Assembly: GCF_001078055.1 (NCBI RefSeq)
Contig: NZ_CP010777.1
Location: 300,408 to 332,407, forward strand
Source: Rufibacter radiotolerans
GTDB lineage: Bacteria > Bacteroidota > Bacteroidia > Cytophagales > Hymenobacteraceae
Length of the DNA stretch: 32,000 bases
Direction of reading: 5' to 3'
Both the position numbers and the translations under genes were made by a program. The stretch's first letter is position 1, and each line of letters opens with the position of its first letter. Below, one piece after another: positions 594 through 30,824 of the stretch. The notes beneath the pieces are model-generated. The model did not search any database. It had not been told where the DNA came from and worked only from the letters and a program-made list of their open reading frames with translations.

Positions 594-638
594 CTTTGTT
601 TTAGGGCCGATTCCTTAAAAAGGGGCTGGAAACGGAAG
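594..638. repeat. degenerate copy of the dispersed palindromic element (copy M)
   Basis: Sequence ctttgttttagggccgattccttaaaaaggggctggaaacggaag resembles GTTTTGGGCC...GGCCCAAAAC. Only about 9 of 15 outer-arm positions still pair. It lies between convergent genes. Confidence 0.35.
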
Positions 639-640
639 AC

Positions 641-1579
641 CTACTGCTGCAGCAACTCGGCCAACATCCCTTCCTTCAAAGCATATGCAGAGACCCGTAT
701 CTTCTCCAGGTTGAATTTCTCCAGCGTCCAGTCAATGACCACGCTTGCCACCACAATCATGTCTACCCGCATGGCCAGCATGCCGGGTATAGCCAGACGC
801 TCAGCGCGGGTTTTATGGGTAAGTTCCTTGTGCTGCCGTTGGTAGGTAGTAAGCGCCAGGTTCATGTCTGGGGAACCTTCCAGATCACGCACAATACCTT
901 GGGCCGCCAGGTCCATGTCCACCAGGGTATCAAAGGTGCCCGAGGAGCCAATCAGGGTTTCGGGTTGGTGCTGGAGTACAGCTGCTGTGAGTTTCTGCAG
1001 GTGATCCTGCAGGTAATGCCGTAGGGCTTTTGCCTGGTCGGAGGTGATGGGTTGTTCCTGGTCTGGGTAGAATTTATCCAGAAGGCGCTGGGCCCCAATC
1101 TCGAAGCTTTTCTTCCAGAGAATGCCTTTATCCGTGCCTATGATGAACTCCACGCTGCCGCCGCCAATGTCCATGACCAGCACTGGTTTGGGGCCTACTT
1201 CCATAGCCAGTTGCACGCCTTTGAAAATGAGTTCGGCCTCCCGGGCCCCGGAGACAATCTCTACCTCAATACCCGTCTGGTCTTTGATGGCCTGCACCAC
1301 TTCCGCACCGTTTTTGGCATTGCGGAGGGCACTGGTAGCGGTAGCCTTGACCACGTCTACCTTATGCTCGGCCATTATCTCTTTGAACTCCCGCAGGGCT
1401 TTCAGGCCGCGCTCCCGGGCCTCAGGAGTGATTTCCCCTTTACTGATACCGCCTTCGCCCAACTTAACCGGCACTTTGGTTTTATACAGGGTCTGCTGCG
1501 CGCCTTCGGGGTCAAGGGCAACAATAAGCAAGTGAAAGGTATTGGTTCCAAGATCTATGAGAGCGTATCGGCGAGACAT
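641..1579 (-). CDS. Ppx/GppA family phosphatase (exopolyphosphatase-like)
   Basis: 312 aa. It has the N-terminal ASKHA-fold phosphate-1 motif ALIDLGTNTFHLLIV, then VMDIGGGSVEF and IGSSGTFDTL, which are typical of Ppx/GppA. Confidence 0.85.
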   Translation of the reverse strand: MSRRYALIDLGTNTFHLLIVALDPEGAQQTLYKTKVPVKLGEGGISKGEITPEARERGLKALREFKEIMAEHKVDVVKATATSALRNAKNGAEVVQAIKDQTGIEVEIVSGAREAELIFKGVQLAMEVGPKPVLVMDIGGGSVEFIIGTDKGILWKKSFEIGAQRLLDKFYPDQEQPITSDQAKALRHYLQDHLQKLTAAVLQHQPETLIGSSGTFDTLVDMDLAAQGIVRDLEGSPDMNLALTTYQRQHKELTHKTRAERLAIPGMLAMRVDMIVVASVVIDWTLEKFNLEKIRVSAYALKEGMLAELLQQ

Positions 1580-1631
1580 TTTGGTAATTAAGTATTAAGA
1601 ATTAGGAATTGAGGCAGAGGCAAATAAGATT

Positions 1632-1958
1632 CTATTGCCAATTACTTCCTCTAAAAATAAGAATCAGCACAGCTAATACGATATGTAACAAGACAATACT
1701 AATTATCACCTTCTTCTGTTTCTTGAAATCTTCAGTTAAATCAATAAAGAAACCATAAAGGGGATATTGAAGGATAGCAAGTATGATAAAAGGCGTAGTG
1801 ATTATTTTAAATAAAAGAATACTAATAAGTCCGAAAGGAAAGAGGACAATGGCTGGCTCATACCATCCATGTCCACCACCCGCAAGAAACAATGCGACCA
1901 ACACCAAAACTGGGGTCAAAAGTGTAAACCGCAAAGTCCACTTCCAATTACGCTGCAT
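1632..1958 (-). CDS. small hypothetical integral membrane protein
   Basis: 108 aa with about 3-4 hydrophobic spans (LLTPVLVLVALFLAGG, IVLFPFGLISILLF, FIILAILQYPLYGFFI, VIISIVLLHIVLAVLILIF). The gene has clearly lower GC than its neighbours. No family recognised. Confidence 0.6.
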   Translation of the reverse strand: MQRNWKWTLRFTLLTPVLVLVALFLAGGGHGWYEPAIVLFPFGLISILLFKIITTPFIILAILQYPLYGFFIDLTEDFKKQKKVIISIVLLHIVLAVLILIFRGSNWQ

Positions 1959-1980
1959 TCCTGTTTGTACAACAATTAAA

Positions 1981-2868
1981 CTACTTCTCAGAACTAAACC
2001 GGAAGAACGTGCCCAGCGGAAGTTTGCGGTGTCCGCGGTCTTCCAGGTAGAGTTCGCCTAGTTCCTCGTTCTGTACGGTCTTCCCGAAAGAGCCTCTAAC
2101 AAGGTTGTCCAGGATGAGCGCGGAGTAGCCCAGGGAGTAAAGGTTGATCACGAAGAAGTTGTTCTCTGGGTCCAGGAGCTGGGAGCAGAGCTTGATGAGT
2201 TCATTGATCTGTTCTTCCAGGAGCCATTTCTCGCCGTCGGGGCCGCGGCCGTAGGCGGGAGGGTCCAGGATAATGCCCTGGTATTTGTTGCCGCGTTTCA
2301 CTTCGCGGCGGGCGTATTTCATGGCGTCTTCTACAATCCACCGGATATTGTCCAGGTTGCTGGCTTCCATGTTTTCGCGGGCCCAGAAGTTGACTTGTTT
2401 CACAGAGTCAAGGTGGGTGACATCGGCACCGCCGGCATTGGCCGCCAGGGACGCGCCGCCGGTGTAGGCGAACATGTTCAACACCTTCGGCTTGCCGGGC
2501 AACGCGCGGGTGCGGTCATAGATAAACTGCCAGTTGGGGTCCTGCTCCGGGAACAGGCCCACATGCTTGAACGAGGACAAACCTAGACGGAAGCGTAGTT
2601 TCAGCTCATGATACCGGTAGTTGATGAACCACTGTTCGGCCATGCCTTTCTTAAGGGCCCACTGGCCTTTTTCGGCGTTTCCTTTCTCACGCCGGAACGT
2701 GGCCTGCGCCAGTCGGTCCCACTCCTGCTCAGAGAGGTGTTTGTCCCAGGCGGCCTGGGGTTCTGGACGGGCCAGCACGTAATCCCCGAAGCGCTCCAAC
2801 TTCTCAAAGTTACCGCAGTCTATCAGTTCATAATCGGTCCAGGCGCTGGTGGTCAGGAAAGAATACAT
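1981..2868 (-). CDS. class I SAM-dependent methyltransferase (RlmI/RlmK-like catalytic domain)
   Basis: 295 aa. SAM-binding motif I is VLNMFAYTGGASLAAN and motif IV is IILDPPAYGRGP. Confidence 0.8.
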   Translation of the reverse strand: MYSFLTTSAWTDYELIDCGNFEKLERFGDYVLARPEPQAAWDKHLSEQEWDRLAQATFRREKGNAEKGQWALKKGMAEQWFINYRYHELKLRFRLGLSSFKHVGLFPEQDPNWQFIYDRTRALPGKPKVLNMFAYTGGASLAANAGGADVTHLDSVKQVNFWARENMEASNLDNIRWIVEDAMKYARREVKRGNKYQGIILDPPAYGRGPDGEKWLLEEQINELIKLCSQLLDPENNFFVINLYSLGYSALILDNLVRGSFGKTVQNEELGELYLEDRGHRKLPLGTFFRFSSEK

Positions 2869-2958
2869 ATCTTTGTTATGGTTTCAGCTGGCAAAGGTAC
2901 GCAATTGGTATCACGTAGCGCGTATCAAGTAGTAAGACTTGGGTAGCCTGGAACCGGG

Positions 2959-2998
2959 CTGTTTTTGGCCTGATTTCCGGAAAACAGGACCAAAACAG
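2959..2998. repeat. dispersed palindromic element, copy A
   Basis: Sequence ctgtttttggcctgatttccggaaaacaggaccaaaacag. It is an imperfect inverted repeat in the divergent region between the methyltransferase and dapF. Confidence 0.7.
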
Positions 2999-3035
2999 AA
3001 GACCAACCCATCCAGCTTTTTACATCGTGCTACTT

Positions 3036-3077
3036 GATACCTGATACCTGATACCTGATACCCGATACCCGATACGC
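3036..3077 (+). repeat. tandem heptamer array (GATACNN x6)
   Basis: Units are gatacct gatacct gatacct gataccc gataccc gatacgc, then a partial atac. The array ends 7 nt before the dapF ATG at 3085. Confidence 0.9.
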
Positions 3078-3084
3078 ATACTAC

Positions 3085-3855
3085 ATGGATTTGACCTTTT
3101 ATAAATACCAGGGCACCGGCAATGACTTTGTGGTGCTGGATAACCGCTCCCAGGAAATCACGCTCACCCAGGAGCAGGTGGCTTTTCTCTGCGACCGCCG
3201 CAAAGGCGTGGGCGCCGACGGCCTGATGCTGCTGCAAAACAAGGAAGGATATGACTTTGAGATGGTCTACTACAACGCCGACGGCCGCGTGGGTTCTATG
3301 TGCGGGAACGGCGGGCGTTGCCTGGTGGCGTTTGTGCAGTTTATGGGCGTGGTAGAGAACGAAGCCTATTTCATTGCCTCAGACGGTCCGCATAAGGCAT
3401 ACCTGAAAGACGGGCTGGTGCACCTGCAGATGAAAGACGTAGACGCCATAGAGGACCTGGAGGAAGCCACGTTTATGAATACCGGCTCGCCGCATTACGT
3501 GAAGCAGGTAGAAGCACTCGCAGACCTGAACGTGTTCGCAGAGGGCCGTGCCATCCGTTACTCAGACCGCTTCAAGGCCGAGGGTACCAACGTGAACTTT
3601 GTGGAGCATCTGCCCCAGAACAAACTGTCGGTGCGCACCTATGAGCGGGGCGTAGAAGATGAGACCTTCTCCTGCGGAACCGGCGTGACCGCCTGCGCCC
3701 TGGCCGCCAGCCGGTCCGGTTATGAAAGCCCGGTGCCCATTAGCGTGTTGGGCGGCGAGCTGCAGGTAAGCTTTGAGAAGGAGGGAAGCGGTTTTAAAAA
3801 TGTCTTCCTTATCGGCCCGGCCGTGCAGGTGTTCAAAGGCGAAATTACCCTGTAG
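3085..3855 (+). CDS. dapF: diaminopimelate epimerase
   Basis: 256 aa. N-terminus is FYKYQGTGNDFVVLDN. Both catalytic Cys motifs are present: SMCGNGGRC and FSCGTGVTA. Confidence 0.93.
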   Translation: MDLTFYKYQGTGNDFVVLDNRSQEITLTQEQVAFLCDRRKGVGADGLMLLQNKEGYDFEMVYYNADGRVGSMCGNGGRCLVAFVQFMGVVENEAYFIASDGPHKAYLKDGLVHLQMKDVDAIEDLEEATFMNTGSPHYVKQVEALADLNVFAEGRAIRYSDRFKAEGTNVNFVEHLPQNKLSVRTYERGVEDETFSCGTGVTACALAASRSGYESPVPISVLGGELQVSFEKEGSGFKNVFLIGPAVQVFKGEITL

Positions 3856-3885
3856 TTTTAACGTAGCGGTTTAGCAGATCATCCT

Positions 3886-4695: not shown

Positions 4696-4711
4696 GTTAG
4701 AAACGTAATTG

Positions 4712-4751
4712 GTGTTTTAGAGTCATTTTCCTGAGAACAGGCCCAAAACGG
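4712..4751. repeat. dispersed palindromic element, copy B (left arm decayed)
   Basis: Sequence gtgttttagagtcattttcctgagaacaggcccaaaacgg. The right arm matches the consensus exactly (aacaggcccaaaacg) and the left arm is degenerate. It lies 3' of the GT2 gene. Confidence 0.6.
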
Positions 4752-6984: not shown

Positions 6985-8181
6985 ATGTTTGATTACCTGA
7001 TTGTAGGGGCCGGTTTTGCCGGCAGTGTACTGGCCGAGCGCCTGGCTACTTATTCCAATAAAAAAGTATTGATTATCGATAAGCGTCCGCATATTGCGGG
7101 GAACGCCTATGACCATTATAATGAAGACGGCATTCTGGTGCACAAGTACGGCCCACACATCTTCCACACCAATTCCAAGGATGTGTTTGAGTACCTGGGG
7201 CAGTTCACCGAGTGGCGCCCGTATGAGCACCGCGTATTGGCCAGCGTAGATGGCCAGCAAGTGCCTATGCCCATTAACCTTGACACCATTAACAAATTGT
7301 ACGGCTTAAGCCTTACCTCTTTTGAGTTAGATGAGTGGTTTGAATCGGTGGCCGAAACCGTGCCGGTGATCAAGACCTCTGAAGACGTGGTGGTGAGCAA
7401 AGTGGGCCGTGAGCTGTATGACAAGTTCTTCAAGAACTACACCCGCAAGCAGTGGGGCATGGACCCGTCTGAGCTGGATAAGTCAGTGACTTCAAGGGTA
7501 CCCACCCGCACGAACCGTGACGACCGTTACTTCACAGACACTTACCAGGCCATGCCGTTGCACGGCTTCACCAAGATGTTTGAGAAGATGCTGGATCACC
7601 CCAACATCAAGATCATGCTCAACACAGACTACCATGAAATCATTGACATGATCCCGTTCAAGGAGATGATTTACACTGGTCCGGTAGATGAGTACTTTGA
7701 CTTTAAGTTCGGCAAGCTGCCGTACCGCTCTCTGGAGTTCAAGCATGAGACCGTGAACAAGGAAGTGTTCCAGCCGGTGGCCGTAGTCAACTACCCTAAT
7801 GAGCAACTCTATACCCGCGTAACAGAATTCAAGTACCTGACCGGTCAGCAGCACCCTAAGACCAGCCTGGTATATGAATTCCCTAAAGCTGAGGGAGATC
7901 CGTATTACCCAGTGCCAAGACCTGAGAACGCTGAACTGTACAACCAGTACAAGAAACTGGCCGACAGTACCCCGGGTGTGCATTTCGTGGGTCGTTTGGC
8001 TACCTACAAATACTACAACATGGACCAGGTAGTGGCGCAGGCCCTTACCCTGCACAAGAAGTTAACCGAGAAAGATAAAGTGAGAGTGGCGGTGGTAGAT
8101 GGCCAGGATGTCTTGCCCAAAGTAGTGCGCGAGGCTTTAAATGGAAGTTCCACCAAACTCAGCACGAATGGCAAACATTAA
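6985..8181 (+). CDS. glf: UDP-galactopyranose mutase
   Basis: 398 aa. The FAD motif is YLIVGAGFAGSVLAERL. Also present are HKYGPHIFHT, FNYTRKQWG-like FKNYTRKQWG, and the C-terminal hallmark FVGRLATYKYYNMDQVVAQAL. Confidence 0.93.
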   Translation: MFDYLIVGAGFAGSVLAERLATYSNKKVLIIDKRPHIAGNAYDHYNEDGILVHKYGPHIFHTNSKDVFEYLGQFTEWRPYEHRVLASVDGQQVPMPINLDTINKLYGLSLTSFELDEWFESVAETVPVIKTSEDVVVSKVGRELYDKFFKNYTRKQWGMDPSELDKSVTSRVPTRTNRDDRYFTDTYQAMPLHGFTKMFEKMLDHPNIKIMLNTDYHEIIDMIPFKEMIYTGPVDEYFDFKFGKLPYRSLEFKHETVNKEVFQPVAVVNYPNEQLYTRVTEFKYLTGQQHPKTSLVYEFPKAEGDPYYPVPRPENAELYNQYKKLADSTPGVHFVGRLATYKYYNMDQVVAQALTLHKKLTEKDKVRVAVVDGQDVLPKVVREALNGSSTKLSTNGKH

Positions 8182-10417
8182 CCTTTGGGGCGGCGTTGAG
8201 TGTACTGTAAACCGGGTAGGCGAACAGTACTTTGATCAGCTGGCACAAAGTGGACATGCGCACCGTCTGGCGGATCTTGATTTGTTCGCCGGTTTGGGTA
8301 TCCAGAAGATGCGGTATCCGGTTCTTTGGGAGCACGTGGCCCCTGAAGACCCTGACCAACACAACTGGACCTGGGCCACCGAGCGCCTCAACAAGCTCCG
8401 TGACCTTCACATAGAACCTATAGTGGGGCTGCTGCATCATGGCAGCGGCCCGCGCTATACCAATCTTTTAGACCCTGAGTTCCCGCAGAAATTTGCCGCC
8501 TACGCCAAAGCCGTGGCGCAGCAGTTTCCGTGGGTCACCCATTACACCCCCATCAACGAGCCGCTCACCACGGCCCGGTTCAGTGCCCTCTACGGTCTGT
8601 GGTACCCACATGCCAAAGATGATGCTTCCTTTGCCCGGGCACTCATGAACCAGATCAACGGCACGCGCCTGGCCATGCAAGCCATTAGGGAGGTGAACCC
8701 CAATGCCCTTCTGGTCCAGACCGATGACCTGGGCTATTCCCACAGCACCACTACCATGCAGTACCAGGCAGACTTTGAGAACCACCGCCGGTGGCTCACC
8801 TGGGATCTGCTATGCGGTAAGGTAGACCAGCAGCACCCCCTCTGGAATTACCTGCACTGGGCCAAGGTGCCTGAAAACGAGTTGCTAGAGATGGTAGCCA
8901 AGCCTTGTCCGCCGGACATCATAGGCATTAACTATTATGTAACCAGCGAGCGTTACTTAGACGAACACATCATTGACTACCCCTGGCATACCCACGGCGA
9001 GAACCACCGGCAGCGTTACGCTGATGTGGAGGCGATCAGGGTGCCAGACGCTATGCCCCTGGGCATCCAGAACATCTTAGCCCAGGTGTGCGAGCGGTAT
9101 GATATTCCGGTAGCCGTCACCGAGGCCCACTTATGCTGTACCCGCGAAGAGCAAATGCGCTGGCTGGCCGAGGTCTGGGATTCTGCGCTGTTTTTGGCAA
9201 ACCAAGGCAAAAACGTGATTGCGGTTACCGCCTGGTCTTTGCTGGGCGCCTTTGACTGGAACAGCCTCTTAACCGAGCAGCGCGGCCACTATGAACTGGG
9301 CGTATTTGACATAAGAACCGGTACCCCCGAACCCACGGCGGCGGCCACCCTGCTGCAGACCCTGGCCAGTGGCGGCGAACGCCACCCAGTGCTGGAGATT
9401 GACGGCTGGTGGAAACGCACCTGCCGCAGCATCTACCCGCCTGTGCCCGAGACGGCAGAAAGCTGGAACCTACGGGCCAACCAGCAGAAAGCCGGTAAAA
9501 CACAAACAAAGCCGCTGCTCATTACCGGTGCCACCGGTACGCTGGGCCGAGCCTTCTCCAGAATCTGTGATGCCCGTGGTATCCCGTATGTACTGCTCAA
9601 CCGCCAGGAAATGGACATCGCGGAGGAAATCTCGGTAAAAGAAGCCCTGCTGAAGTATAAACCATGGGCCGTCATCAATACCGCCGGCTACGTGCGCGTA
9701 GACGATGCGGAGCGGGAACAGGAAGCCTGTTACCGTGAGAACACCGAAGGACCCGCCATCTTGGCGAAGGCCTGCCAGAAGCACAACAGCAAGTTGGTGA
9801 CCTTCTCCTCAGACCTGGTGTTCAACGGAACCAAGCAAACTCCTTACCTGGAAGAGGATGCCCACAGCCCTCTCAACATCTATGGCCATAGCAAGGCTCA
9901 GGCCGAAGTAAAGGTGCTGGAAACTTTGCCGGAAGCCCTGGTGATCAGAACCAGCGCGTTCTTCGGGCCCTGGGATGAGCACAACTTTGTGTACCATGCC
10001 CTGCGGGCGATGGCGCATGAGGAGCCGTTCCATGCCGCGGAAGACCTATACATTACGCCCACGTTTGTGCCAGATCTGGTGAATACCGCGTTGGATTTAT
10101 TGATAGACGGAGAGACCGGGATATGGAACGTAGCCAACCAGGGCGCCTACAGTTGGGCCGAGTTGGCAGAACTGGCGGCCAACCTGGCAGGCCTCAACCC
10201 AGAACCCTGGCTACAGCCTGTGCCACAGTCTTTTTTTAACTGGCCTGCCGCCAGACCTGCCTATACCGTGCTGGAGACCAGTAAACGGGCCGTATTACCC
10301 ACCGTGGAAGATGCGCTGCACCGGTTCCTGCACCTGCATGAGTTCCCTTTCCGTCCGGCTTTTGCGCCCCACCCAGAAGAAGTGGAAGAAGAAAGTCTCC
10401 TTTCAGCCAGGGCGTAG
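8168..10417 (+). CDS. bifunctional-looking fusion: GH1-like TIM-barrel domain + RmlD-like (dTDP-4-dehydrorhamnose reductase family) SDR domain
   Basis: The N-terminal ~450 aa carry GH1-type motifs: YTPINEP (acid/base Glu) and PVAVTEAH (nucleophile Glu position). The C-terminal ~290 aa carry the Rossmann motif LLITGATGTLG and the catalytic YGHSKAQAE (YxxxK). There is no signal peptide. I prefer the ATG at 8168 (MANINLWGG), which overlaps the glf stop by 14 nt. The track's start at 8141 is also possible. Confidence 0.8.
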   Translation: MANINLWGGVECTVNRVGEQYFDQLAQSGHAHRLADLDLFAGLGIQKMRYPVLWEHVAPEDPDQHNWTWATERLNKLRDLHIEPIVGLLHHGSGPRYTNLLDPEFPQKFAAYAKAVAQQFPWVTHYTPINEPLTTARFSALYGLWYPHAKDDASFARALMNQINGTRLAMQAIREVNPNALLVQTDDLGYSHSTTTMQYQADFENHRRWLTWDLLCGKVDQQHPLWNYLHWAKVPENELLEMVAKPCPPDIIGINYYVTSERYLDEHIIDYPWHTHGENHRQRYADVEAIRVPDAMPLGIQNILAQVCERYDIPVAVTEAHLCCTREEQMRWLAEVWDSALFLANQGKNVIAVTAWSLLGAFDWNSLLTEQRGHYELGVFDIRTGTPEPTAAATLLQTLASGGERHPVLEIDGWWKRTCRSIYPPVPETAESWNLRANQQKAGKTQTKPLLITGATGTLGRAFSRICDARGIPYVLLNRQEMDIAEEISVKEALLKYKPWAVINTAGYVRVDDAEREQEACYRENTEGPAILAKACQKHNSKLVTFSSDLVFNGTKQTPYLEEDAHSPLNIYGHSKAQAEVKVLETLPEALVIRTSAFFGPWDEHNFVYHALRAMAHEEPFHAAEDLYITPTFVPDLVNTALDLLIDGETGIWNVANQGAYSWAELAELAANLAGLNPEPWLQPVPQSFFNWPAARPAYTVLETSKRAVLPTVEDALHRFLHLHEFPFRPAFAPHPEEVEEESLLSARA

Positions 10418-10431: not shown

Positions 10432-10479
10432 AAACCCGTTTTGGGCCTGTTTTTACAAAAACAGGCCCAAAACGGGTTT
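10432..10479. repeat. dispersed palindromic element, copy C (perfect)
   Basis: Left arm aaacccgttttgggcctgttttt, spacer ac, right arm aaaaacaggcccaaaacgggttt. The arms are perfect over 23 bp. ttt tct follows, so it may terminate the glf operon. Confidence 0.9.
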
Positions 10480-10565: not shown

Positions 10566-10604
10566 CTGTTTTAAGCCCGTTTTTGAGAAAACAGGGGTAA
10601 AACG
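10566..10604. repeat. dispersed palindromic element, copy D
   Basis: Sequence ctgttttaagcccgtttttgagaaaacaggggtaaaacg. It is imperfect and is the second copy in the secA upstream region. Confidence 0.6.
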
Positions 10605-15354: not shown

Positions 15355-15396
15355 AAACGGGTGTGGGCTGTATTGGTCCTTTCTTAATACCATTTC

Positions 15397-15448
15397 CTTC
15401 CGCCGTTTTAAGCCTGTTTTTCAGAAAACAGGCTTAAAACGGCGGAAG
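15397..15448. repeat. dispersed palindromic element, copy E (perfect)
   Basis: Left arm cttccgccgttttaagcctgtttt, spacer tcag, right arm aaaacaggcttaaaacggcggaag. The arms are perfect over 24 bp. The variant is AAGCC/GGCTT where copy C has GGGCC/GGCCC. Confidence 0.9.
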
Positions 15449-15459
15449 CTTTTTCTGCC

Positions 15460-15467
15460 TACCTTTG
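15460..15467 (+). promoter_or_regulatory. candidate -7 promoter box for the amidohydrolase gene
   Basis: tacctttg is an exact match to TAnnTTTG. It ends 26 nt before the ATG at 15494 and lies directly downstream of repeat copy E. Confidence 0.3.
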
Positions 15468-15493
15468 CCTTCCAGATTATAGACTGATTTTCC

Positions 15494-16699
15494 ATGCAAG
15501 ACCTTTCCCACCGCATTCAGGCCCTGGCCAGGCAGTACGCCCATGACACGGTAGCCACGCGCCATCACCTGCACCAGCACCCGGAGCTTTCCTTCCAGGA
15601 GCATGAGACCTCGGCCTACGTTTTCCAGAAGCTGCAGGAATATGGCCTGAACCCGGAGCGGATGACGGAGACCGGCGTGGTAGCCTTGGTGCAAGGCCGT
15701 AACCCCGAAAAAGCCACCACCGCCCTGCGTGCCGACCTGGATGCGTTGCCTATTCTGGAGACCAATGAGGTGGATTACAAATCAAAGCGGGAAGGGGTGA
15801 TGCACGCCTGCGGCCATGACGTGCACACGTCTTCATTGCTTACCACCGCGCGCATTCTGCAGGAACTTCGGAATGAGTTCGAAGGGACGGTCAAGCTGAT
15901 CTTCCAACCCGGTGAGGAGAAGTTCCCGGGCGGCGCGTCTCTGATGATCAAGGAGGGTGTGCTGGAGAATCCGGCGCCTAAGAGCATTATGGGCCAGCAC
16001 GTGTTCCCGTTTCTGCCGGCGGGCAAAGTAGGTTTCCGGTCGGGTATGTATATGGCTAGTGCAGATGAGATTTACGTGACCGTGAAAGGCAAGGGCGGCC
16101 ACGGCGGCCTTCCGGAGCAACTGGTAGACCCGGTGCTCATTACGGCGCACCTGTTGGTGGCGCTGCAACAGATTGTGAGCCGGCGCGCCAACCCTAAAAT
16201 CCCGTCGGTGCTGTCCTTTGGACGCGTGATCGCGGAGGGGGCTACCAACGTGATACCCGGGGAGGTGAAGCTGGAGGGCACCTTCAGGACCATGGATGAA
16301 AACTGGCGGGCCGAAGCCAAAGTGTTGATGAAGAAACTGGCCGAAGGCCTTTGTGAAAGCATGGGCGGTTCCTGTGAGTTCACCCTCATGGACGGCTACC
16401 CCTTCCTGAAGAACGACCCCGAACTGGTGGCCCGTGCTCGTGCGGGCGCTGAGGCTTACTTGGGGCCGGAGAACGTAGTGGACCTGGACATGTGGATGGC
16501 CGCCGAGGACTTCGCGTATTACTCCCAAATCACTCCCGCCTGCTTCTACCGGCTGGGTACCCGCAACGAGGCCCAAGGCATTACCTCGGGCGTACATACG
16601 CCCACCTTCAACATAGACGAAGATGCGCTGGAAGTAGGCAGCGGCCTCATGGCCTGGCTGGCCATCCATGAGTTGCAGTCGCTCGCGGCGGAACAGTAA
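15494..16699 (+). CDS. M20 family amidohydrolase (M20D, N-acyl-amino acid amidohydrolase-like)
   Basis: 401 aa. The metal-binding motif is MHACGHDVH. The sequence also contains IFQPGEE and GGHG. Confidence 0.85.
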   Translation: MQDLSHRIQALARQYAHDTVATRHHLHQHPELSFQEHETSAYVFQKLQEYGLNPERMTETGVVALVQGRNPEKATTALRADLDALPILETNEVDYKSKREGVMHACGHDVHTSSLLTTARILQELRNEFEGTVKLIFQPGEEKFPGGASLMIKEGVLENPAPKSIMGQHVFPFLPAGKVGFRSGMYMASADEIYVTVKGKGGHGGLPEQLVDPVLITAHLLVALQQIVSRRANPKIPSVLSFGRVIAEGATNVIPGEVKLEGTFRTMDENWRAEAKVLMKKLAEGLCESMGGSCEFTLMDGYPFLKNDPELVARARAGAEAYLGPENVVDLDMWMAAEDFAYYSQITPACFYRLGTRNEAQGITSGVHTPTFNIDEDALEVGSGLMAWLAIHELQSLAAEQ

Positions 16700-16784: not shown

Positions 16785-16834
16785 AAAAAGCGTTTCGGGC
16801 CTGTTTTTCCAAAAACAGGCCCGAAACGCTTTTT
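16785..16834. repeat. dispersed palindromic element, copy F (perfect)
   Basis: Left arm aaaaagcgtttcgggcctgttttt, spacer cc, right arm aaaaacaggcccgaaacgcttttt. The arms are perfect over 24 bp and flanked by A-run and T-run. It sits between convergent genes and looks like a bidirectional terminator. Confidence 0.9.
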
Positions 16835-18824: not shown

Positions 18825-18843
18825 CCTGCTTGTTAAAAAAGTT

Positions 18844-18871
18844 AAAAAGGCGCTTGAAATGGCGCCTTTTT
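18844..18871 (+). terminator. Rho-independent terminator
   Basis: aaaaaggcgc and gcgccttttt flank an 8-nt loop. The T-run is 18867-18871. Confidence 0.7.
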
Positions 18872-18994
18872 GGCGTAGTCTTTGTTTACATTAACATACT
18901 AGTTTTACTATTTTAGCGTTTCTTCCGTACCAAATAAGAAGCAGACTTTAAGACAGATAAAACATATTTCTAACTTTTTAGCTTACCTGAGAAT

Positions 18995-20488
18995 ATGAAG
19001 ACAAAACAATTAATGTTTGGTTTGTTGCTTTCCGCTATGGTAGGTGGAGGTGTGGGCGTTGGTAGCTACAAACTACTGGAAGATGATACCCCTGCTGCCG
19101 GGCAACAATTACCCAATACCAATGTGCGGTATACCAGTGCCATGCGCTCGTCTACCGTAACCGTACCAGAAGGAATCAATTTTGTGACCTCCGCTGAACT
19201 GGTAACACCGGCGGTGGTGCACGTGACCACCGAGTACAACGTACAGGCCAGCCGTGGCCAAAGCCAGATCCATCCGTTCCTGCGCGATTTCTTCGGAGAA
19301 GAATTTGAAGGCTACCAGCAGCGTCCGCAGGGCCCGGCCCAGGGATCAGGGTCTGGGGTGATCATTGCCTCTAACGGCTATATTGTCACCAATAACCACG
19401 TGATTGACCGCGCCGATAAGATTCAGGTGATCCTGGATGACAAACGCACCTTTGAGGCCACTTTGGTAGGTACAGACCCTAACACAGACATTGCGCTTCT
19501 AAAAATTGGCGCCGAGAACCTGCCGGCCCTGCGCTACGGCAACTCAGATAATGTGCGCGTAGGCGAGTGGGTGCTGGCGGTGGGTAACCCCTTCAACCTG
19601 AACTCTACCGTGACCGCGGGTATTGTAAGTGCCAAAGGCCGGAACGTAGGTATTCTGCAGGCCGCCGGCAATATGAGCGTGGAGTCCTTTATTCAGACCG
19701 ATGCTGCGGTAAACCCTGGTAACAGCGGGGGCGCCTTGGTGAACCTGAACGGAGACCTGGTGGGTATCAATACCGCCATCGCCTCGCAGACCGGTACCTT
19801 CTCGGGTTATTCCTTTGCCGTGCCGTCCTCTATTGTGAGCAAGGTGGTAGATGACCTCATCAAATATGGCGAGGTACAGCGCGCGCTCCTGGGGGTGCAG
19901 ATGCAGGAGGTAGATTCCCAACTGGCCAAAGAAAAGAACCTGAAAACCCTGAACGGGGTGTACGTGGCCGAGTTCTCTGAAGGCAGCGCCGCCAAGGCCG
20001 CCGGCTTGGAGAAAGGCGACGTGATCACCGAGATTAACGGCGTGAAGATCAATACCGGTGCCCAGTTGCAGGAGCAGGTAACCCGTTACCGCCCCGGCGA
20101 CAAGATCAAGGTAAATTACCTGCGCTCCGGAAGCAACAAAACGGCAACCGTTACCCTGCGTAACTCCAAAGGCAGCACCGAGATTGTGAAGCGCGACCCT
20201 AAAGCCAGCAAATCTATGACCATAGACGGGGCTAAGTTTGAGGCCGCCAGCAAGCAGGATCTGAACAAACTGGATATCCCGGGTGGGGTGCAGATCAATG
20301 GGGTGGAAGGAAGCGCCTTTGCCGAGACCGGCATGCGCGATGGCTTCATTATCACCAGCATTGACAAGAACCCAATGAACACCCCCGAAGACGTTCAAAA
20401 AGTACTAAAAACCACCAGACGTGGCGGACTGTTGATTGAAGGGGTCTACCCAGACGGGCGCCGGGCGTATTACGCCATTGGCCGCTAG
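18995..20488 (+). CDS. htrA: Do/HtrA family serine endopeptidase with two PDZ domains
   Basis: 497 aa with an N-terminal signal/anchor. The catalytic triad contexts are TNNHV (His), DIALLKI (Asp) and GNSGGAL (Ser). Two PDZ-like regions follow. Confidence 0.92.
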   Translation: MKTKQLMFGLLLSAMVGGGVGVGSYKLLEDDTPAAGQQLPNTNVRYTSAMRSSTVTVPEGINFVTSAELVTPAVVHVTTEYNVQASRGQSQIHPFLRDFFGEEFEGYQQRPQGPAQGSGSGVIIASNGYIVTNNHVIDRADKIQVILDDKRTFEATLVGTDPNTDIALLKIGAENLPALRYGNSDNVRVGEWVLAVGNPFNLNSTVTAGIVSAKGRNVGILQAAGNMSVESFIQTDAAVNPGNSGGALVNLNGDLVGINTAIASQTGTFSGYSFAVPSSIVSKVVDDLIKYGEVQRALLGVQMQEVDSQLAKEKNLKTLNGVYVAEFSEGSAAKAAGLEKGDVITEINGVKINTGAQLQEQVTRYRPGDKIKVNYLRSGSNKTATVTLRNSKGSTEIVKRDPKASKSMTIDGAKFEAASKQDLNKLDIPGGVQINGVEGSAFAETGMRDGFIITSIDKNPMNTPEDVQKVLKTTRRGGLLIEGVYPDGRRAYYAIGR

Positions 20489-20525
20489 TTTTTGCCCGAA
20501 ATCAGAAAAACAGGCCAGAAACGGC
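20481..20525. repeat. dispersed palindromic element, copy G (left arm decayed)
   Basis: Sequence gccgctagtttttgcccgaaatcagaaaaacaggccagaaacggc. It overlaps the htrA stop codon (TAG at 20486-20488). Confidence 0.55.
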
Positions 20526-20532
20526 TATAAGG

Positions 20533-20567
20533 AAAGCTCCTGCCATTGGCAGGAGCTTTTTGTTTTT
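20533..20567 (+). terminator. Rho-independent terminator
   Basis: aaagctcctgcc (20533-20544) and ggcaggagcttt (20548-20559) are perfectly complementary. tttgtttttg follows. Confidence 0.8.
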
Positions 20568-22857: not shown

Positions 22858-22899
22858 GCGTTTTGAGGGCGTTTTACCAAAAACAGGCCTGAAACGGGA
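22858..22899. repeat. dispersed palindromic element, copy H (left arm decayed)
   Basis: Sequence gcgttttgagggcgttttaccaaaaacaggcctgaaacggga. It directly abuts the preceding canonical terminator. Confidence 0.55.
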
Positions 22900-24639: not shown

Positions 24640-25200
24640 TTGGAGACGCTGGAATACACTGACGTAAACGCGCAGGTGGTAGCCCGATGTAAGGAGGGTG
24701 ACCGAAAGGCGCAGTATGAGCTCTATAAGCTCTACAGTAAATCTATGTTCAACGTGAGCATGCGCATCACCAATGATTACACAGAGGCCGAGGACGTCTT
24801 GCAGGAAGCATTTCTGAGCGCGTTCCGGGAACTGAACTCCTTCAAAGGCGATGCCACCTTCGGCAGTTGGCTTAAGCGCATTGTCATTAACAAGGCCATC
24901 ACCAAAGTGCGCAGCCGGCGCCTGCAGGTAGTGCCCATAGAGGAGCACCAGGATTTCGCGGAGGAGGCCCCTGACTATGACCAGGAGGAAATGGACTACA
25001 AGGTGGACTGCATCAAGAAAGCCATTCAAGCCTTGCCAGACGGTTACCGGGTGGTGCTCACGCTGTACCTGCTGGAAGGCTATGACCACGGCGAGATAGC
25101 CGAAGTGCTGGGCATTAGTGAGGCCACCTCCAAATCACAGTACAGCCGGGCCCGCAAGAAGTTGCTGACCCTCATGAAAGAAGAAACGTTTCTTGCCTGA
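24640..25200 (+). CDS. ECF-type RNA polymerase sigma-70 factor
   Basis: 186 aa. Region 2 is EDVLQEAFLSAFRELNSFKGDATFGSWLKRIVINKA. The region 4 HTH is YRVVLTLYLLEGYDHGEIAEVLGISEATSKSQYSRARKKL. The start is TTG, so its position is somewhat uncertain. Confidence 0.88.
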   Translation: METLEYTDVNAQVVARCKEGDRKAQYELYKLYSKSMFNVSMRITNDYTEAEDVLQEAFLSAFRELNSFKGDATFGSWLKRIVINKAITKVRSRRLQVVPIEEHQDFAEEAPDYDQEEMDYKVDCIKKAIQALPDGYRVVLTLYLLEGYDHGEIAEVLGISEATSKSQYSRARKKLLTLMKEETFLA

Positions 25201-25247
25201 TTTCTAAAAAACGAACCTAAAACAGAAAGCCAAAAGCTTTAAAAGCC

Positions 25248-27148: not shown

Positions 27149-27176
27149 GAGAAAAGTATAGGTTTAATAATAGGGA

Positions 27177-27207: not shown

Positions 27208-27213
27208 ATACCT

Positions 27214-27252
27214 CCGTTTTTAGGCTATTTTTGTGAAAACAGGCCTAAAACG
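27214..27252. repeat. dispersed palindromic element, copy I
   Basis: Sequence ccgtttttaggctatttttgtgaaaacaggcctaaaacg. The TAGGC/GCCTA variant is compensated. Its left arm contains tatttttg (27226-27233), which matches TAnnTTTG and ends 26 nt upstream of the RidA-family ATG. Confidence 0.7.
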
Positions 27253-27259
27253 TGCTGCC

Positions 27260-27685
27260 ATGGAAAACACGCCCTCCAATTTTATTAACGCCTCCAAAGC
27301 GCCCGAACCGGTGGGCCTGTACCCGCACGCCCGTAAGGTAGGTGGCCTGTTGTTTCTTTCGGGCGTAGGCCCCCGGGAGAGAGGGGTAAAAGAAATACCC
27401 GGCGTGACCCTGGACGCCGCCGGCAACATTGAAAGCTATGACATAGAGGCGCAGTGCCACTCGGTGTTCAAAAACGTGCGGGCCATTCTGGAAGAGGCCG
27501 GCTCTGCCTGGGAAAACCTGGTGGACGTGACCGTGTTCCTCACCAACATGAAGGCAGATTTCCAGACCTACAACCGGCTGTACGCCGAGTACTTCAAAGA
27601 CTGCCAGCCTTGCCGCACCACCGTAGAGGTGAATGCCCTGCCCACTCCCATTGCCATTGAACTCAAGTGCATTGCCACTATTTAA
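27260..27685 (+). CDS. RidA/YjgF family protein (reactive intermediate deaminase-like)
   Basis: Motifs are APEPVGLYPHARKVGGLLFLSG, VDVTVFLTNMKADFQTYNRLYAEYF and PCRTTVEVNALPTPIAIELKCIA. I prefer the ATG at 27260, because the track's GTG at 27233 lies inside the repeat element. Confidence 0.85.
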   Translation: MENTPSNFINASKAPEPVGLYPHARKVGGLLFLSGVGPRERGVKEIPGVTLDAAGNIESYDIEAQCHSVFKNVRAILEEAGSAWENLVDVTVFLTNMKADFQTYNRLYAEYFKDCQPCRTTVEVNALPTPIAIELKCIATI

Positions 27686-27743
27686 GCAAAAAGAAAGGCC
27701 GTTCGGCAATAACTTCCGTAGGTTTGCCTTTAGACAATAGAGC

Positions 27744-27790
27744 ATTTCTGTTTTTGGGCCGTTTTCTGTAAAACAGGCCCAAAACAGAAT
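27744..27790. repeat. dispersed palindromic element, copy J
   Basis: Sequence atttctgtttttgggccgttttctgtaaaacaggcccaaaacagaat. It belongs to the AAAACAG outer variant. Confidence 0.75.
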
Positions 27791-27858
27791 CTAACACCTG
27801 CTGGCCGGAGGGCGTGCCGTATTGGCAACCATAACGCTTTCCTGCTTTTACTTATCCT

Positions 27859-29658
27859 ATGCAACATACCCCAGAGCCGTTGTTTGCGGAGCGCCAGCAA
27901 CGCTTTTTTGCCGCCGAAGAAAAGCAGGCCTTCAAATACCGTTGGGTGGGCTGGCTGCGACTGTCCTTTTTTGTGGGGGCCGCCCTGGGCGGGGCGGCGC
28001 TGATCTATTACGGACAGGCGGCGGCCGGCATTGCTGTGCTGCTTGGTGGGTATTTTATTTTTGCCGCCCTCATCCATTGGCACAACAAGATAGAGTACGC
28101 CCGCAAGCACCAGTTGTACCTGGGCCTGATCAATCGCACCGAGCAGGAACGCCTCAAAGGAGACCTGAAAGACCTGCCCAACGGCGCCCATTTTGAGGAA
28201 CCCAACCATTTTTATGCGGCTGACTTAGACGTTTTCGGGCATAACTCCCTCTTTCAATTGTTGAACCGGGCCGTCACTCTTTTAGGCCAGCAGCGCCTGG
28301 CCGAGTGGCTGAAAACCCCGGCTCCGGCCCCGGAGATCATTGCCCGCCAGGAGGCCGTGGCCGAACTGGTGCTGGACATTGAGTGGCGCCAAAACCTGCA
28401 GGCCCGTGCTATGCACCACCATCGCAAGACGCAACAGTTGCCCCAACCGTTTCTGCTTTGGTTGCGCCAGCCAAATTTCTTTACAGGCAAAGGCTGGCTG
28501 GTAGTGGCCACGTTCCTGTTGCCCACGCTTACTTTGGCGGCCATTGTGTACTGGATGGAAGGCCATTCGCATTACCCTTTCCTGGCCCTGGTGGTGGTGC
28601 AGTTCCTGATTGCGGTCAAGTTCCAGCGGCAGCGCGATGAGTATTATGAAGAAAGCAGCGGCATGTACGAGACCCTGCGCAGTTATACAGACATGCTGGT
28701 GCACATTGAAGGCCGCACCTTTCAGAGTGCCCGGGCCCGGGAGTTGCAGCAGCAGCTGAGCATAGACGCCAAGCCGGCCTCTGAACACGTGCGGCAGCTG
28801 GCCTCCATTATTCAGTACTTGTCGGCCCGGCTCAACACCTACCTCAACTTTATCCTGAACCACGTGCTTATGTGGGACTTTATCTGGATGTGGCGCCTGG
28901 AACGCTGGAAACGCACCATGTCCGGCAGCATAGGCCAGGTGCTGAACGCCGCCGCCGAGTTTGAGGCGCTGGCCAGTCTGGCGGCGTTTCAGTTTGCCAA
29001 CCCAGACTACGCTGTGCCGCACATCAGCCCAGAGCCTTTCCGGTTTGAGGCAGAGGAGTTGAGCCACCCGCTTATTTTCAGCGTGGCCCGCAAAGCCAAC
29101 AGTATTTCCTTTAAGGGGGCCGGGCACACGGTTTTGATCACGGGGTCCAATATGTCGGGCAAGAGTACCTTTCTGCGGGCGGTAGGGGTGAACATGGTGC
29201 TGGCCTTTACCGGCGCGGCCGTCTGCGCCAGAAAGCTGGCCGTGTTCCCGGCGTTGGTCTACACCAGCATGCGCACCGAAGACAACCTGGCGGAGAACAC
29301 TTCCTCTTTCTACGCCGAGCTCAAACGCCTGAAGATTCTCATTGACCTCACCGCCACCGGGCAACCCGTCTATTTCTTCCTGGACGAGATCCTGAAAGGC
29401 ACCAATTCCCATGACCGCCATGAAGGGGCAATGGCCTTAATCAGGCAGCTGCACCAGCGCCAAACCTCAGGCTTTGTGTCTACCCATGATCTGGAGTTGG
29501 GCAATATGGAGCAGGAGTTGCCGGGCTGCGTGGAGAACTTTAGCTTTAACAGTTACTTTGAAGACGGGCACCTGCGGTTTGACTATACCCTTCGGCCGGG
29601 CATCTGCCAGAGCTTTAACGCCAGCCAGCTCATGCGCCAGATGGGCATTGAAATGTAG
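27859..29658 (+). CDS. MutS-related ATPase with N-terminal transmembrane segments (MutS domain III/V only)
   Basis: 599 aa. Walker A is ITGSNMSGKSTFLRAVG and Walker B is FFLDEILKGTNSHDR. STHDLEL is also present. There are about 4 hydrophobic spans (WLRLSFFVGAALGGAALIYY, IAVLLGGYFIFAALI, WLVVATFLLPTLTLAAIVYW, FLALVVVQFLIAV). I see no mismatch-binding domain I and no Smr domain. Confidence 0.8.
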   Translation: MQHTPEPLFAERQQRFFAAEEKQAFKYRWVGWLRLSFFVGAALGGAALIYYGQAAAGIAVLLGGYFIFAALIHWHNKIEYARKHQLYLGLINRTEQERLKGDLKDLPNGAHFEEPNHFYAADLDVFGHNSLFQLLNRAVTLLGQQRLAEWLKTPAPAPEIIARQEAVAELVLDIEWRQNLQARAMHHHRKTQQLPQPFLLWLRQPNFFTGKGWLVVATFLLPTLTLAAIVYWMEGHSHYPFLALVVVQFLIAVKFQRQRDEYYEESSGMYETLRSYTDMLVHIEGRTFQSARARELQQQLSIDAKPASEHVRQLASIIQYLSARLNTYLNFILNHVLMWDFIWMWRLERWKRTMSGSIGQVLNAAAEFEALASLAAFQFANPDYAVPHISPEPFRFEAEELSHPLIFSVARKANSISFKGAGHTVLITGSNMSGKSTFLRAVGVNMVLAFTGAAVCARKLAVFPALVYTSMRTEDNLAENTSSFYAELKRLKILIDLTATGQPVYFFLDEILKGTNSHDRHEGAMALIRQLHQRQTSGFVSTHDLELGNMEQELPGCVENFSFNSYFEDGHLRFDYTLRPGICQSFNASQLMRQMGIEM

Positions 29659-29692
29659 TTTAGCCCTGTTTTTGCAAAAACAGCCCCAAAAC
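29658..29692. repeat. dispersed palindromic element, copy K (outer stem decayed)
   Basis: Sequence gtttagccctgtttttgcaaaaacagccccaaaac. The inner 8-bp stem ctgttttt/aaaaacag is intact. The element begins at the last base of the MutS-like stop codon. Confidence 0.55.
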
Positions 29693-29728
29693 AGCGGCAC
29701 TAATTAAAAACCAGAACGTACAGGTTTC

Positions 29729-29736
29729 TAACTTTG
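29729..29736 (+). promoter_or_regulatory. candidate -7 promoter box for the 82-aa gene
   Basis: taactttg is an exact match to TAnnTTTG. Its flanks (c...cc) are the same as those of the box at 15460. It ends 35 nt before the ATG at 29772. Confidence 0.3.
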
Positions 29737-29771
29737 CCTTCTTCTTTCACCCAACTTTTTTTCTATAGCCC

Positions 29772-30020
29772 ATGCGTGTTGTCGCTGATATCCCTCACCC
29801 TGAAATAAAGATCACCTTACTTTCCTGGAACGGTAAGTACTTGCTCAAACTGGAGCTGGGCCCCTTTGAGCAAACCTACAAAGTAAGCGAGATGGAAGTG
29901 ACCGGCGGCGATGAGGAAGTGAAGAAATGGTTGGACGAGCCTTTCCTGCAGGGGAGCATTGAGCTGTTTCTGGCCATGCGCAAGAACCTACACGAAGCCC
30001 GCCTTCGCCACGAGTTGTAA
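29772..30020 (+). CDS. small conserved-looking hypothetical protein
   Basis: 82 aa with an ATG start and plausible composition (MRVVADIPHPEIKITLLSWNGKYLLKLE...). No family recognised. Confidence 0.55.
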   Translation: MRVVADIPHPEIKITLLSWNGKYLLKLELGPFEQTYKVSEMEVTGGDEEVKKWLDEPFLQGSIELFLAMRKNLHEARLRHEL

Positions 30021-30194
30021 CGCCTTAGCGCTGTTGGTAAATATTTTCCTCTGAGGCTGTGGAAAATAGTGTGGAGAACTTGCAAAATCAAAAACGTTAT
30101 CCTACTTTCATGCTAGACAGACAACAAGTGACTATTATTGTATGATTTTCACAGTGCCGTTATTGAGGTAGCGGTATTAGTCTCTTACAGCTAT

Positions 30195-30635
30195 ATGCAG
30201 ATAGGATTAAGCAAACATATAAAGATTTCCTATCGGGCAGATATGCAAACGGTGATTATCCGTTGGCAACAGCCTGTCACCTTCACGGAGTTTAAGATAA
30301 ACTGCCTGGCTATTCTCGCATTGGCCAAAGAAAACAGCGCCTCTTCCTGGCTGCTGGATTGCCGTTCAAAAGGCGAAATTACCGAACAGGAAAGTGACTG
30401 GCTAACCGAGGAATTCTACCCCAAAGCCATTGAGCAGGTAGCTTCCCAATTAGTGGTGGCCTGGCTATTGACGCCCCGCCAGATGCAGCGCCTGTCAGAA
30501 GGCGCCAACCTTTCTGCGGTGACCCTGGATAACCCCGTCATCCGGAGAAACGCCTTCATGACGGAGCAAGACGCCGTAAAATGGCTGGAAGAGTCTATGG
30601 CTACCTTGGAGAAAAATAGCACCCCCCGCTCTTAA
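30195..30635 (+). CDS. hypothetical protein
   Basis: I prefer the ATG at 30195 (MQIGLSKHIKISYRADMQTVIIRW...) over the TTG at 30138. The GC content is lower than in neighbouring genes. Any similarity to STAS/SpoIIAA-like folds is only an impression. Confidence 0.5.
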   Translation: MQIGLSKHIKISYRADMQTVIIRWQQPVTFTEFKINCLAILALAKENSASSWLLDCRSKGEITEQESDWLTEEFYPKAIEQVASQLVVAWLLTPRQMQRLSEGANLSAVTLDNPVIRRNAFMTEQDAVKWLEESMATLEKNSTPRS

Positions 30636-30786
30636 TCCTTTTCTTTCCTGTCTTTAAGCAGAGAACCCTTCTTTCAACTTCTTCCAGGCTTTTTGCCCTC
30701 TCTGGGCTGCTTCTATTCCCTAGCCCTTTCTTAGTAGATTTCTTTACTTACCTGACTGGTTTACCCTCTTTTCTTTTGGTAAAAGG

Positions 30787-30824
30787 CGTTTTGAGCCTGT
30801 TTTTAGGAAAACAGGCCCAAAACG
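30787..30824. repeat. dispersed palindromic element, copy L
   Basis: Sequence cgttttgagcctgtttttaggaaaacaggcccaaaacg. It has one arm mismatch and lies between convergent genes. Confidence 0.8.

Follow-up and report, generated by a model that had tools for sequence, protein, structure and literature searches.

Repetitive extragenic palindromic (REP) elements have been studied well almost only in Proteobacteria, and how they spread and why they persist is still debated. REPs linked to a REP-associated tyrosine transposase (RAYT) are defined by GTAG/CGTC tags together with a flanking RAYT gene (PMC3733652, PMC5581495, PMC6006769). Untagged REP-like stem-loops have also been described from several phyla (Mycobacterium tuberculosis, Deinococcus radiodurans, Bordetella, Brucella, and Cyanobacteria), with the remark that "many more likely occur" (PMC3733652). 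In this work we analyzed a 32,000-nt stretch of the Rufibacter radiotolerans genome (Bacteroidota, Hymenobacteraceae; contig NZ_CP010777.1, positions 300,408 to 332,407, hereafter the window), in which an earlier note based on the letters alone had pointed out a recurrent intergenic palindrome. The Rufibacter repeat is a REP in the broad sense, that is, a short palindrome (20-40 bp) of high copy number that is overwhelmingly extragenic. With moderate confidence we read it as an untagged, lineage-specific family of REP-like extragenic palindromes, some of which look like terminators and which would be propagated by copying at the DNA level. The suggestion of a REP-like dispersed hairpin in the earlier note is borne out by the short palindrome, the high copy number, the very low number of intragenic hits (3 out of 167 strict hits), the restriction to one lineage, and the genome-specific variants.

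A 36-nt Palindrome With a Conserved Hairpin

The window contains 14 copies of the palindrome in 32 kb. The 13 copies of the earlier note are all present where it had placed them, as seen by inverted-repeat search, direct reading, and a covariance model (CM), and one decayed copy at 25188-25223 was added. The inverted-repeat search detected perfect arms of 23-24 bp in three copies (10432, 15397, and 16785) and imperfect arms in three others (2959, 29659, and 30787); the remaining copies were located by direct reading of the sequence. A CM, which the note had recommended, was built from the 13 copies and run without filters; in a scan of the window it regained all 13 with E = 1e-7 to 1e-12 and added 25182-25229 with E = 3e-4, and no other match in the window fell below E = 0.4. 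The half-site GGGCCTGTTTTT (12 nt, <=2 mismatches) has 24 matches in the window vs 5.4 +/- 2.6 in shuffled sequences, and 0 out of 100 shuffles reached 24.

The core palindrome of 36 nt can be written as C[CT]GTTTT-N-GGCCTGTTTT-(4-nt loop)-AAAACAGGCC-N-AAAAC[AG]G, and the core length is 36 nt in 190 out of 227 copies across genomes. The size of 40-50 bp proposed earlier needs correction to this extent: the palindrome is real, but the fixed unit is 36 nt and the extra length consists of stem extensions that differ from locus to locus. The true termini are C[CT]GTTT...AAAC[AG]G, although the bracketing C[CT]...[AG]G around the GTTTT...AAAAC core is usual rather than universal. Near-invariant parts of the core are the outer GTTT/AAAC and the inner TTT/AAA, and the outer ends are kept in all of the genome-specific variants (dialects) described below. 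Positions 5, 6, and 9 of the core are variable yet complementary, even within a single genome; at position 6 the pairs are TA (62), AT (48), GC (38), and CG (20), with 78% paired vs 27% expected. Pairing also runs 6-7 bp into the non-conserved flanks, where it falls from 76% at position -1 to 36% at position -7 while the expected value falls from 46 to 25%. This covariation, in the core and in the locus-specific flanking stems, shows selection on the pairing of the hairpin. Copies are mostly single, with a median spacing of 1.4 kb even in loci selected for the repeat; only 27 out of 202 neighbor distances are <=200 nt, for example that between the copies at 10432 and 10566.

Distribution in Related Genomes

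When one genome per GTDB species was scanned for the exact pattern, at least 120 loci matched. Among the matches listed, about 75 belong to ten Rufibacter species, Nibribacter koreensis, and one "Cytophagales" metagenome-assembled genome (MAG) and the rest are scattered singletons; in this set the family is confined to Rufibacter, Nibribacter, and one related MAG. Loci selected by the pattern are biased to perfect copies. We also fetched six syntenic secA loci via the SecA protein, which are hence not selected for the repeat, and found 61 sites in 140 kb (~0.4 copies per kb). With a generic detector (GTTT...AAAC with >=12/15 Watson-Crick pairs) the density was 0.005 copies per kb in unrelated loci but 0.20-0.44 per kb in those of Rufibacter, Nibribacter, and the MAG. 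No copies were found in the syntenic loci of Pontibacter and Adhaeribacter; these outgroup loci have ordinary unrelated terminators at the orthologous places, and no alternative repeat family was seen in the loci examined. Gene calls in the fetched loci come from a codon-usage heuristic that was checked against database calls for the syntenic loci only. The SecA of the window is of the long Bacteroidota type and shows 93% identity to the protein of Rufibacter sp. XAAS-G3-1 and 98% identity to one encoded on a JGI metagenome contig; among Logan assemblies, two contained the exact strain. Provided that the sampled loci are representative, a genome would carry ~2,000 copies. The family dates back at least to the common ancestor of Rufibacter and Nibribacter.

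The earlier note had not recognized a named repeat family, and none was found here. Rfam at permissive E-values returned only spurious sub-threshold miRNA matches on the hairpins, the searched literature on palindromic or extragenic repeats in Rufibacter, Nibribacter, and Hymenobacteraceae contained nothing relevant, and the supplements of PMC6006769 do not mention Rufibacter or Nibribacter. In plasmid and phage collections BLAST detected no match to the element, a search in which short T-rich queries may be partly masked. The family appears to be undescribed, but not a new kind of element. The note had also allowed that the repeat might be peculiar to this window, equally frequent in genes, or a member of a described family; instead, its enrichment extends far beyond the window in related genomes, coding sequence is depleted of it, and no named family matches.

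Orthologous Sites and Genome Dialects

Throughout the Rufibacter and Nibribacter loci, copies are found in the same orthologous gaps, and this also holds when the window or Nibribacter is compared with the MAG. The closest relative of the window among the loci, L123, has diverged from it by 31% at 4-fold sites, and all 8 window sites in the overlap are common to both (8/8). Element identity between the window and L123 is 80%, equal to that of the flanking intergenic DNA (80%). At the 15397 site two pair changes between the window and L123 are fully compensated, and the outer stem of this site covaries across genomes (ccgcc/ggcgg, ctgcc/ggcag, and cttcc/ggaag).

At larger distances the picture is different. 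The mean identity is 0.774 between different sites of the same genome, 0.698 between orthologous sites of different genomes, and 0.693 between different sites of different genomes; the last two values show that beyond family membership orthology adds nothing at greater distances. Each genome has its own dialect, with GTTTTAGGCC in the MAG, GTTTTTGGCC in Nibribacter and DG15C, and GTTTAGGGCC in R. immobilis. In Rufibacter sp. LB8, GGGCTCATTT-YCAG-AAATGAGCCC is present at 7 out of 7 orthologous sites examined, with both arms changed compensatorily. A dialect of its own in each genome, with compensatory changes of the arms, is what the sequences present as concerted evolution. The behavior of the loop differs among genomes. 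In the secA loci L125 (LB8), L126 (N. ruber), and L127 (DG15C) the 4-nt loop is near-uniform (YCAG) and co-oriented with plus-strand genes (17:0), and loops are random in the window, R. ruber, and the MAG. The orientation of the loop (CAG vs CTG) by gene direction is not significant overall (Fisher p = 0.16), and gene and replication direction are inseparable in these loci. As a separate observation, one orthologous copy differs between the close relatives L126 (6290-6325) and L127 (6296-6331) by a block change at its left end from GTTTTTG to AAAAAAA, possibly a templated or multi-nucleotide mutation, and is conserved in the rest of its length.

Genomic Context and Terminator-Like Copies

About half of all intergenic gaps >=40 nt in the sampled loci are occupied: 74-86% of convergent, 52-58% of co-directional, and 41-67% of divergent gaps. 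By this pattern the element belongs to intergenic DNA in general and moderately prefers 3' ends. The gene map of the window, drawn from NCBIfam scans, codon-usage gene calls, and database calls with precomputed Pfam on a syntenic locus, agrees with the gene placement reported earlier, including the two exceptions at 2959 (divergent gap) and 10566 (upstream of secA). All copies are intergenic or touch only a stop codon; to the two overlaps already known at 20481 and 29658, the copy at 25188 adds a third.

The earlier note had also considered a family of terminator or mRNA-stabilizing hairpins, and this is supported for a subset of copies only. After plus-strand genes a downstream T-run is found in 20 out of 61 copies vs an upstream A-run in 1 out of 61, the mirrored pattern holds after minus-strand genes (10/34 vs 4/34), and in divergent gaps neither T-run nor A-run is present (0/15). 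The copies with a T-run are also better paired (14-14.7 of 16 pairs vs 12.2-13.5 in others) and have longer locus-specific stems (4.4-5.3 bp vs ~2 bp). Across genomes, ~20-30% of the 3'-end copies combine an extended stem with a T-run in the direction of transcription, and in the window the terminator anatomy (stable hairpin, then T-run) is seen in 3 out of 14 copies (10432, 15397, and 16785). A longer stem combined with a T-run that points the same way as the upstream gene is the anatomy of intrinsic, sometimes bidirectional, terminators, and on this anatomy the subset of copies look like intrinsic terminators. The terminator interpretation does not extend to the whole family, as most copies are without a T-run and 41-67% of divergent gaps are occupied.

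Prophage Copies and Gene Turnover

A viral-contig scan found a 42-kb prophage (IMGVR_UViG_2883339560_000001) with terminase, integrase, and methylase genes, whose terminase relatives lie in Hymenobacteraceae genomes. It carries three copies of the Nibribacter-type dialect that are perfect and identical to one another and that lack both a stem extension and a T-run (L131:9375-9408, L133:6599-6634, and L134:7196-7229, all on the same contig). A second viral contig has one copy of the window-type dialect (L135:1275-1310). The density in the prophage is ~0.07 per kb vs ~0.4 per kb in chromosomal loci, and its copies look like a recent insertion into young DNA.

Differences in gene content between relatives often fall between two copies. 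One such variable spot lies upstream of the M20 peptidase gene (window 15355-15494; L123:14558-15305; L124:14624-16448; L125:14594-15187; L128:14603-15538). A homologous gene of ~90 aa (129 aa as called in L124; 50-60% identity) lies between two elements in three relatives, an unrelated 150-aa gene on the opposite strand lies between two elements in L123, and a single element is present in the window, N. ruber, and DG15C. This arrangement suggests deletion or insertion via recombination at the elements. A Por_Secre_tail gene of LB8 is a further gene-content difference between copies. Taken generally, such differences suggest recombination at elements, or that elements accompany gene turnover.

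Proposed Explanation and Its Alternatives

In our proposal, the family would have spread in the Rufibacter/Nibribacter ancestor and then stayed in place at orthologous sites, where some copies would serve as the apical part of intrinsic terminators and others decay. Propagation, present or recent, would take place at the DNA level by the copying of a master sequence, and resident copies or terminator hairpins already present would often be overwritten or entered in the process. Copying of this kind would account for the genome-specific dialects seen at orthologous sites, for loops that are homogeneous in some genomes, and for the three identical naked copies of the prophage. The obvious candidate enzyme would be a RAYT-type HUH/Y1 endonuclease acting on single-stranded hairpins.

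Several results weigh against this proposal. No transposase, as the earlier note had observed, and no Y1/HUH gene was found in the window by NCBIfam scans and in the precomputed Pfam of the syntenic locus, and a scan for the HUH...Y motif in ~0.9 Mb of fetched DNA of relatives found no RAYT. The RAYT-type tags are present at chance level (GTAG near the boundary in 12 and CGTC in 4 out of 215 copies). The comparison of orthologous gaps advised in the note showed sites common to relatives, but no insertion or absence polymorphism between the window and L123 over 23 kb, with the one exception of an extra copy beside an extra gene; mobility is thus low on that time scale. Near-perfect copies of R. 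ruber and the MAG have random bases at the two central loop positions (1.7-2.0 bits) and arms of nearly zero entropy, a combination that fits old copies kept by purifying selection better than copies made recently. Finally, selection for host-type terminators, in place of insertion, could account for the copies in the prophage.

The main rival is an explanation that we regard as unlikely: a standardized functional 3'-end module, an RNA or DNA hairpin that is not mobile and is read by a clade-specific trans-acting factor. Candidates for the factor would be RNase III, with perfect stems >=20 bp as its substrate, and proteins of termination, processing, or stability; purifying selection would keep every copy, and dialects would arise from the co-evolution of site and factor. 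Such a module is consistent with positions conserved across genera, with near-perfect copies that have invariant arms and random loops, with the outer GTTT/AAAC conserved in all dialects, with directional T-runs on better paired copies, and with the highest occupancy in convergent gaps. It does not sit well with the decay of about half of the window copies, which fold no better than shuffles, nor with a window-L123 divergence inside elements that equals that of the flanks. Selection at the RNA level is not apparent either, as there is no sense-strand G·U excess (128 vs 134) and mismatches are without G·U bias. At least 41% of the divergent gaps are occupied though they have no 3' end, the loops and orientation in LB8 are homogeneous at orthologous sites, which selection on the arms only does not explain, and the identical prophage copies are without T-runs.

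A further, more novel reading is speculative and unlikely: the element would be either a "site-conservative" replicator that overwrites resident copies or a standardized terminator module read by a dedicated protein of the clade. For the replicator, a so far unrecognized enzyme of single-stranded hairpins would copy a master hairpin over residents or into the loops of terminator hairpins, with the outer GTTT/AAAC as recognition or cleavage sites. Positions would have stayed fixed for as long as the clade has existed, and overwriting across the genome would from time to time replace the sequence, together with its loop and its orientation. If true, site-conservative copying or a dedicated terminator reader would be a mode of concerted evolution or termination that has not been described for REPs, in a phylum where REP biology is essentially unstudied.

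The fixed 36-nt length, conserved arms, and symmetric half-sites would also suit a double-stranded DNA binding site, in which two inverted half-sites are bound genome-wide in intergenic DNA by a dimeric nucleoid-associated or regulatory protein. Copies are confined to intergenic DNA, divergent promoter regions included, and the dialects could reflect co-evolution with the protein. We consider this very unlikely. Positions 5, 6, and 9 take several complementary pairs within one genome and pairing enters the non-conserved flanks, as expected for a hairpin and not for half-site recognition, so that pairing matters more than the half-site sequence; the T-runs are coupled to the direction of transcription; and the density of ~0.4 per kb is far above that of known site-specific regulators.

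A miniature inverted-repeat transposable element (MITE) moved by a DDE transposase, mentioned as a possibility in the earlier note, would likewise be dispersed, palindromic, and intergenic, and a 166-nt hairpin repeat (see below) lies beside some MAG copies; with a unit of only 36 nt, flanks that are inverted-complementary and not direct repeats, and 3-5-bp direct duplications at the boundaries no commoner than in controls, i.e., no target-site duplication, this origin is highly improbable. The DNA-uptake sequence of the note, as an inverted pair comparable to the Neisseria DNA uptake sequence (DUS) or to Haemophilus uptake signal sequence (USS) pairs that double as terminators, matches the terminator-like positions, the species-specific dialects, and the very high density, and is hardly credible given that all 16-mer arm matches with <=2 mismatches in the window belong to palindromes, with no solitary arms outside them or in coding sequence, and that only the three strict hits are intragenic. 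A CRISPR array was rejected because copies are dispersed singly between genes at a median spacing of 1.4 kb, and an integron attC site was rejected on anatomy.

Individual Copies and Neighboring Features of the Window

When folding was compared with shuffled sequence, five of the 14 window copies are very stable (10432, 15397, 16785, 27744, and 30787; -22 to -40 kcal/mol, z <= -5.6), the copy at 22858 is marginal, and eight are decayed and no better than shuffled sequence. The three terminator-like copies are perfect. The copy at 10432..10479 (core 10438-10473) lies 3' of a GH1-RmlD fusion gene and has 23-bp perfect arms (-37 kcal/mol, z=-9), a stem extension AAACCC/GGGTTT with a T-run, and the best terminator-scan score; a second, imperfect copy in the same gap lies upstream of secA at 10568..10603 (3+3 arm mismatches; CM E=5e-10). 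Upstream of the M20 peptidase gene, the copy at 15397..15448 (core 15405-15440) has 24-bp perfect arms (-40.5 kcal/mol) and a locus-specific stem CTTCCGCC/GGCGGAAG with a T-run, and its flank stem covaries in 7 genomes. The copy at 16785..16834 (core 16792-16827; -38.6 kcal/mol) has an A-run on one side and a T-run on the other and lies where the M20 peptidase and porin genes converge; the terminator scan is positive on both strands, and the copy looks like a bidirectional terminator.

Two further copies are well paired without a T-run: one at 27750..27785 in the gap between the Rid-family and MutS-like genes (3+0 mismatches; -22 kcal/mol, z=-5.6), with an orthologue upstream of the MutS-like gene in the MAG locus L040, and one at 30788..30823 in the convergent gap before a short-chain dehydrogenase/reductase (SDR) gene (1+0 mismatches; -23.8 kcal/mol, z=-6.1; orthologue L040:2370-2405). 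The copy at 2961..2996 in the divergent gap between a methyltransferase gene and dapF (2+1 mismatches; CM E=1e-10) has orthologous copies in 6 related loci. Imperfect copies are located 3' of a 161-aa gene at 22860..22895 (4+2 mismatches; z=-2.1), in the gap between a 444-aa gene and the Rid-family gene at 27216..27251 (4+1 mismatches; CM E=1e-10), and over the stop of the MutS-like gene at 29657..29692 (4+1 mismatches; orthologue L040:3362-3397).

The remaining four copies are decayed. The copy at 598..633 (594 in the earlier note; 5+5 arm mismatches; CM match 592-639, E=9e-8; z=-1.1) lies in the convergent gap between a 785-aa protein gene and ppx and adjoins an ordinary terminator hairpin at 541-585. 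The copy at 4714..4749, 3' of a GT2 glycosyltransferase gene, has a decayed left arm and no stable fold (6+1 mismatches; CM E=7e-10). A decayed 35-nt copy at 20488..20522 (7+2 mismatches; CM E=2e-8) begins at the end of the htrA TAG stop (20486-20488), is followed by an ordinary terminator at 20533-20559, and has orthologues in L123, L126, L127, and L128. The copy at 25188..25223, absent from the earlier list, lies over the stop of an extracytoplasmic function (ECF) sigma gene (4+4 mismatches; CM E=3e-4) and has orthologues at L126:22663 and L127:22687. The GT1|glf gap in the window is another example of a decaying site. A candidate intragenic copy at 9179-9214, within the GH1-RmlD fusion gene, was rejected as conserved coding sequence with weak chance similarity.

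On the plus strand, the right arm is nearer the consensus in 8 window copies (4714, 20488, 22860, 27216, 27750, 29657, 30788, and 2961) and never the reverse. This asymmetry was rejected as a signal: it was not replicated at the L123 orthologous sites, nor in related loci by gene direction or within loci, and is either chance or unexplained. Ordinary non-repeat terminator hairpins with T-runs are present in the window at 541-585, 18841-18874, and 20533-20559, and two of them adjoin decayed copies (594 and 20481), as if the element were redundant there. No tRNAs were found in the window. The gene at 8141-10417 encodes a 758-aa protein in which a GH1-like glycosidase domain is fused to an RmlD (dTDP-4-dehydrorhamnose reductase) domain, an unusual combination that is kept across Rufibacter, Nibribacter, and Adhaeribacter beside UDP-galactopyranose mutase.

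The MAG (JBBSSO01) contains a separate repeat of ~166 nt that forms a long imperfect hairpin (DNA fold -48 kcal/mol for a 221-nt stretch, z = -7.6) and is not present in the window. Its copies are at L117:4818-4985, L088:5377-5543, L060:2296-2464, L025:151-317, L050:224-410, and L074:2290-2460, with weaker matches at L124:104-265 and L026:301-417 and a deletion derivative at L117:7564-7621. It often directly adjoins the 36-nt palindrome, and also contig ends. This repeat looks like a MITE or a REPIN (a REP doublet forming a hairpin), and its target may be the 36-nt palindrome.

Relation to Described Repeat Families

The Rufibacter family is a clean and very dense Bacteroidota system in which orthologous copies can be traced over about a dozen sequenced species, and in which dialects, compensatory changes, decay, and co-option into terminators are seen together. 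It could be used to test whether selection, an enzyme-driven overwrite, or the two together maintain REP-like elements. In practical terms, the elements probably add to the breaks in short-read assemblies of these genomes and should be masked or modeled in terminator and sRNA prediction for Hymenobacteraceae.

Dense copies at 3' ends, terminator-like anatomy, and lineage dialects are shared with the inverted DUS pairs and the Correia/NEMIS elements of Neisseria. DUS are abundant as single 10-12-mers and occur also within genes, unlike the Rufibacter arms, and Correia elements are 100-150 bp long with terminal inverted repeats and TA duplication, which are not features of the Rufibacter element. 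There is also a known system of the same phylum whose genome-dispersed hairpin repeats could correspond to it, with the difference that no RAYT was seen in the window.

The REPs and bacterial interspersed mosaic elements (BIMEs) of Enterobacteria and Pseudomonas (Di Nocera et al. 2013, PMC3733652) have the following in common with the Rufibacter element. They are 20-40-bp palindromes in hundreds to thousands of extragenic copies with a species-specific consensus, located at gene 3' ends and inside operons, with a conserved stem and a variable loop; termination and mRNA 3'-end protection are their proposed roles, and they persist for long at orthologous sites. The Rufibacter element differs in that it has no GTAG/CGTC head, a Bacteroidota host, and no cognate RAYT identified. 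It is fully symmetric with near-perfect 16-bp arms, whereas the REPs of E. coli have bulges, and its mostly solitary copies seem to differ from BIME/REPIN doublets.

The best-fitting class is the untagged REP-like families (PMC3733652), which are also dispersed palindromes with no terminal tag and no known transposase. The Rufibacter family differs from them in clade and sequence and in its unusually high density (about half of the intergenic gaps), and it adds to this class documented positional conservation together with concerted evolution at the level of dialects.

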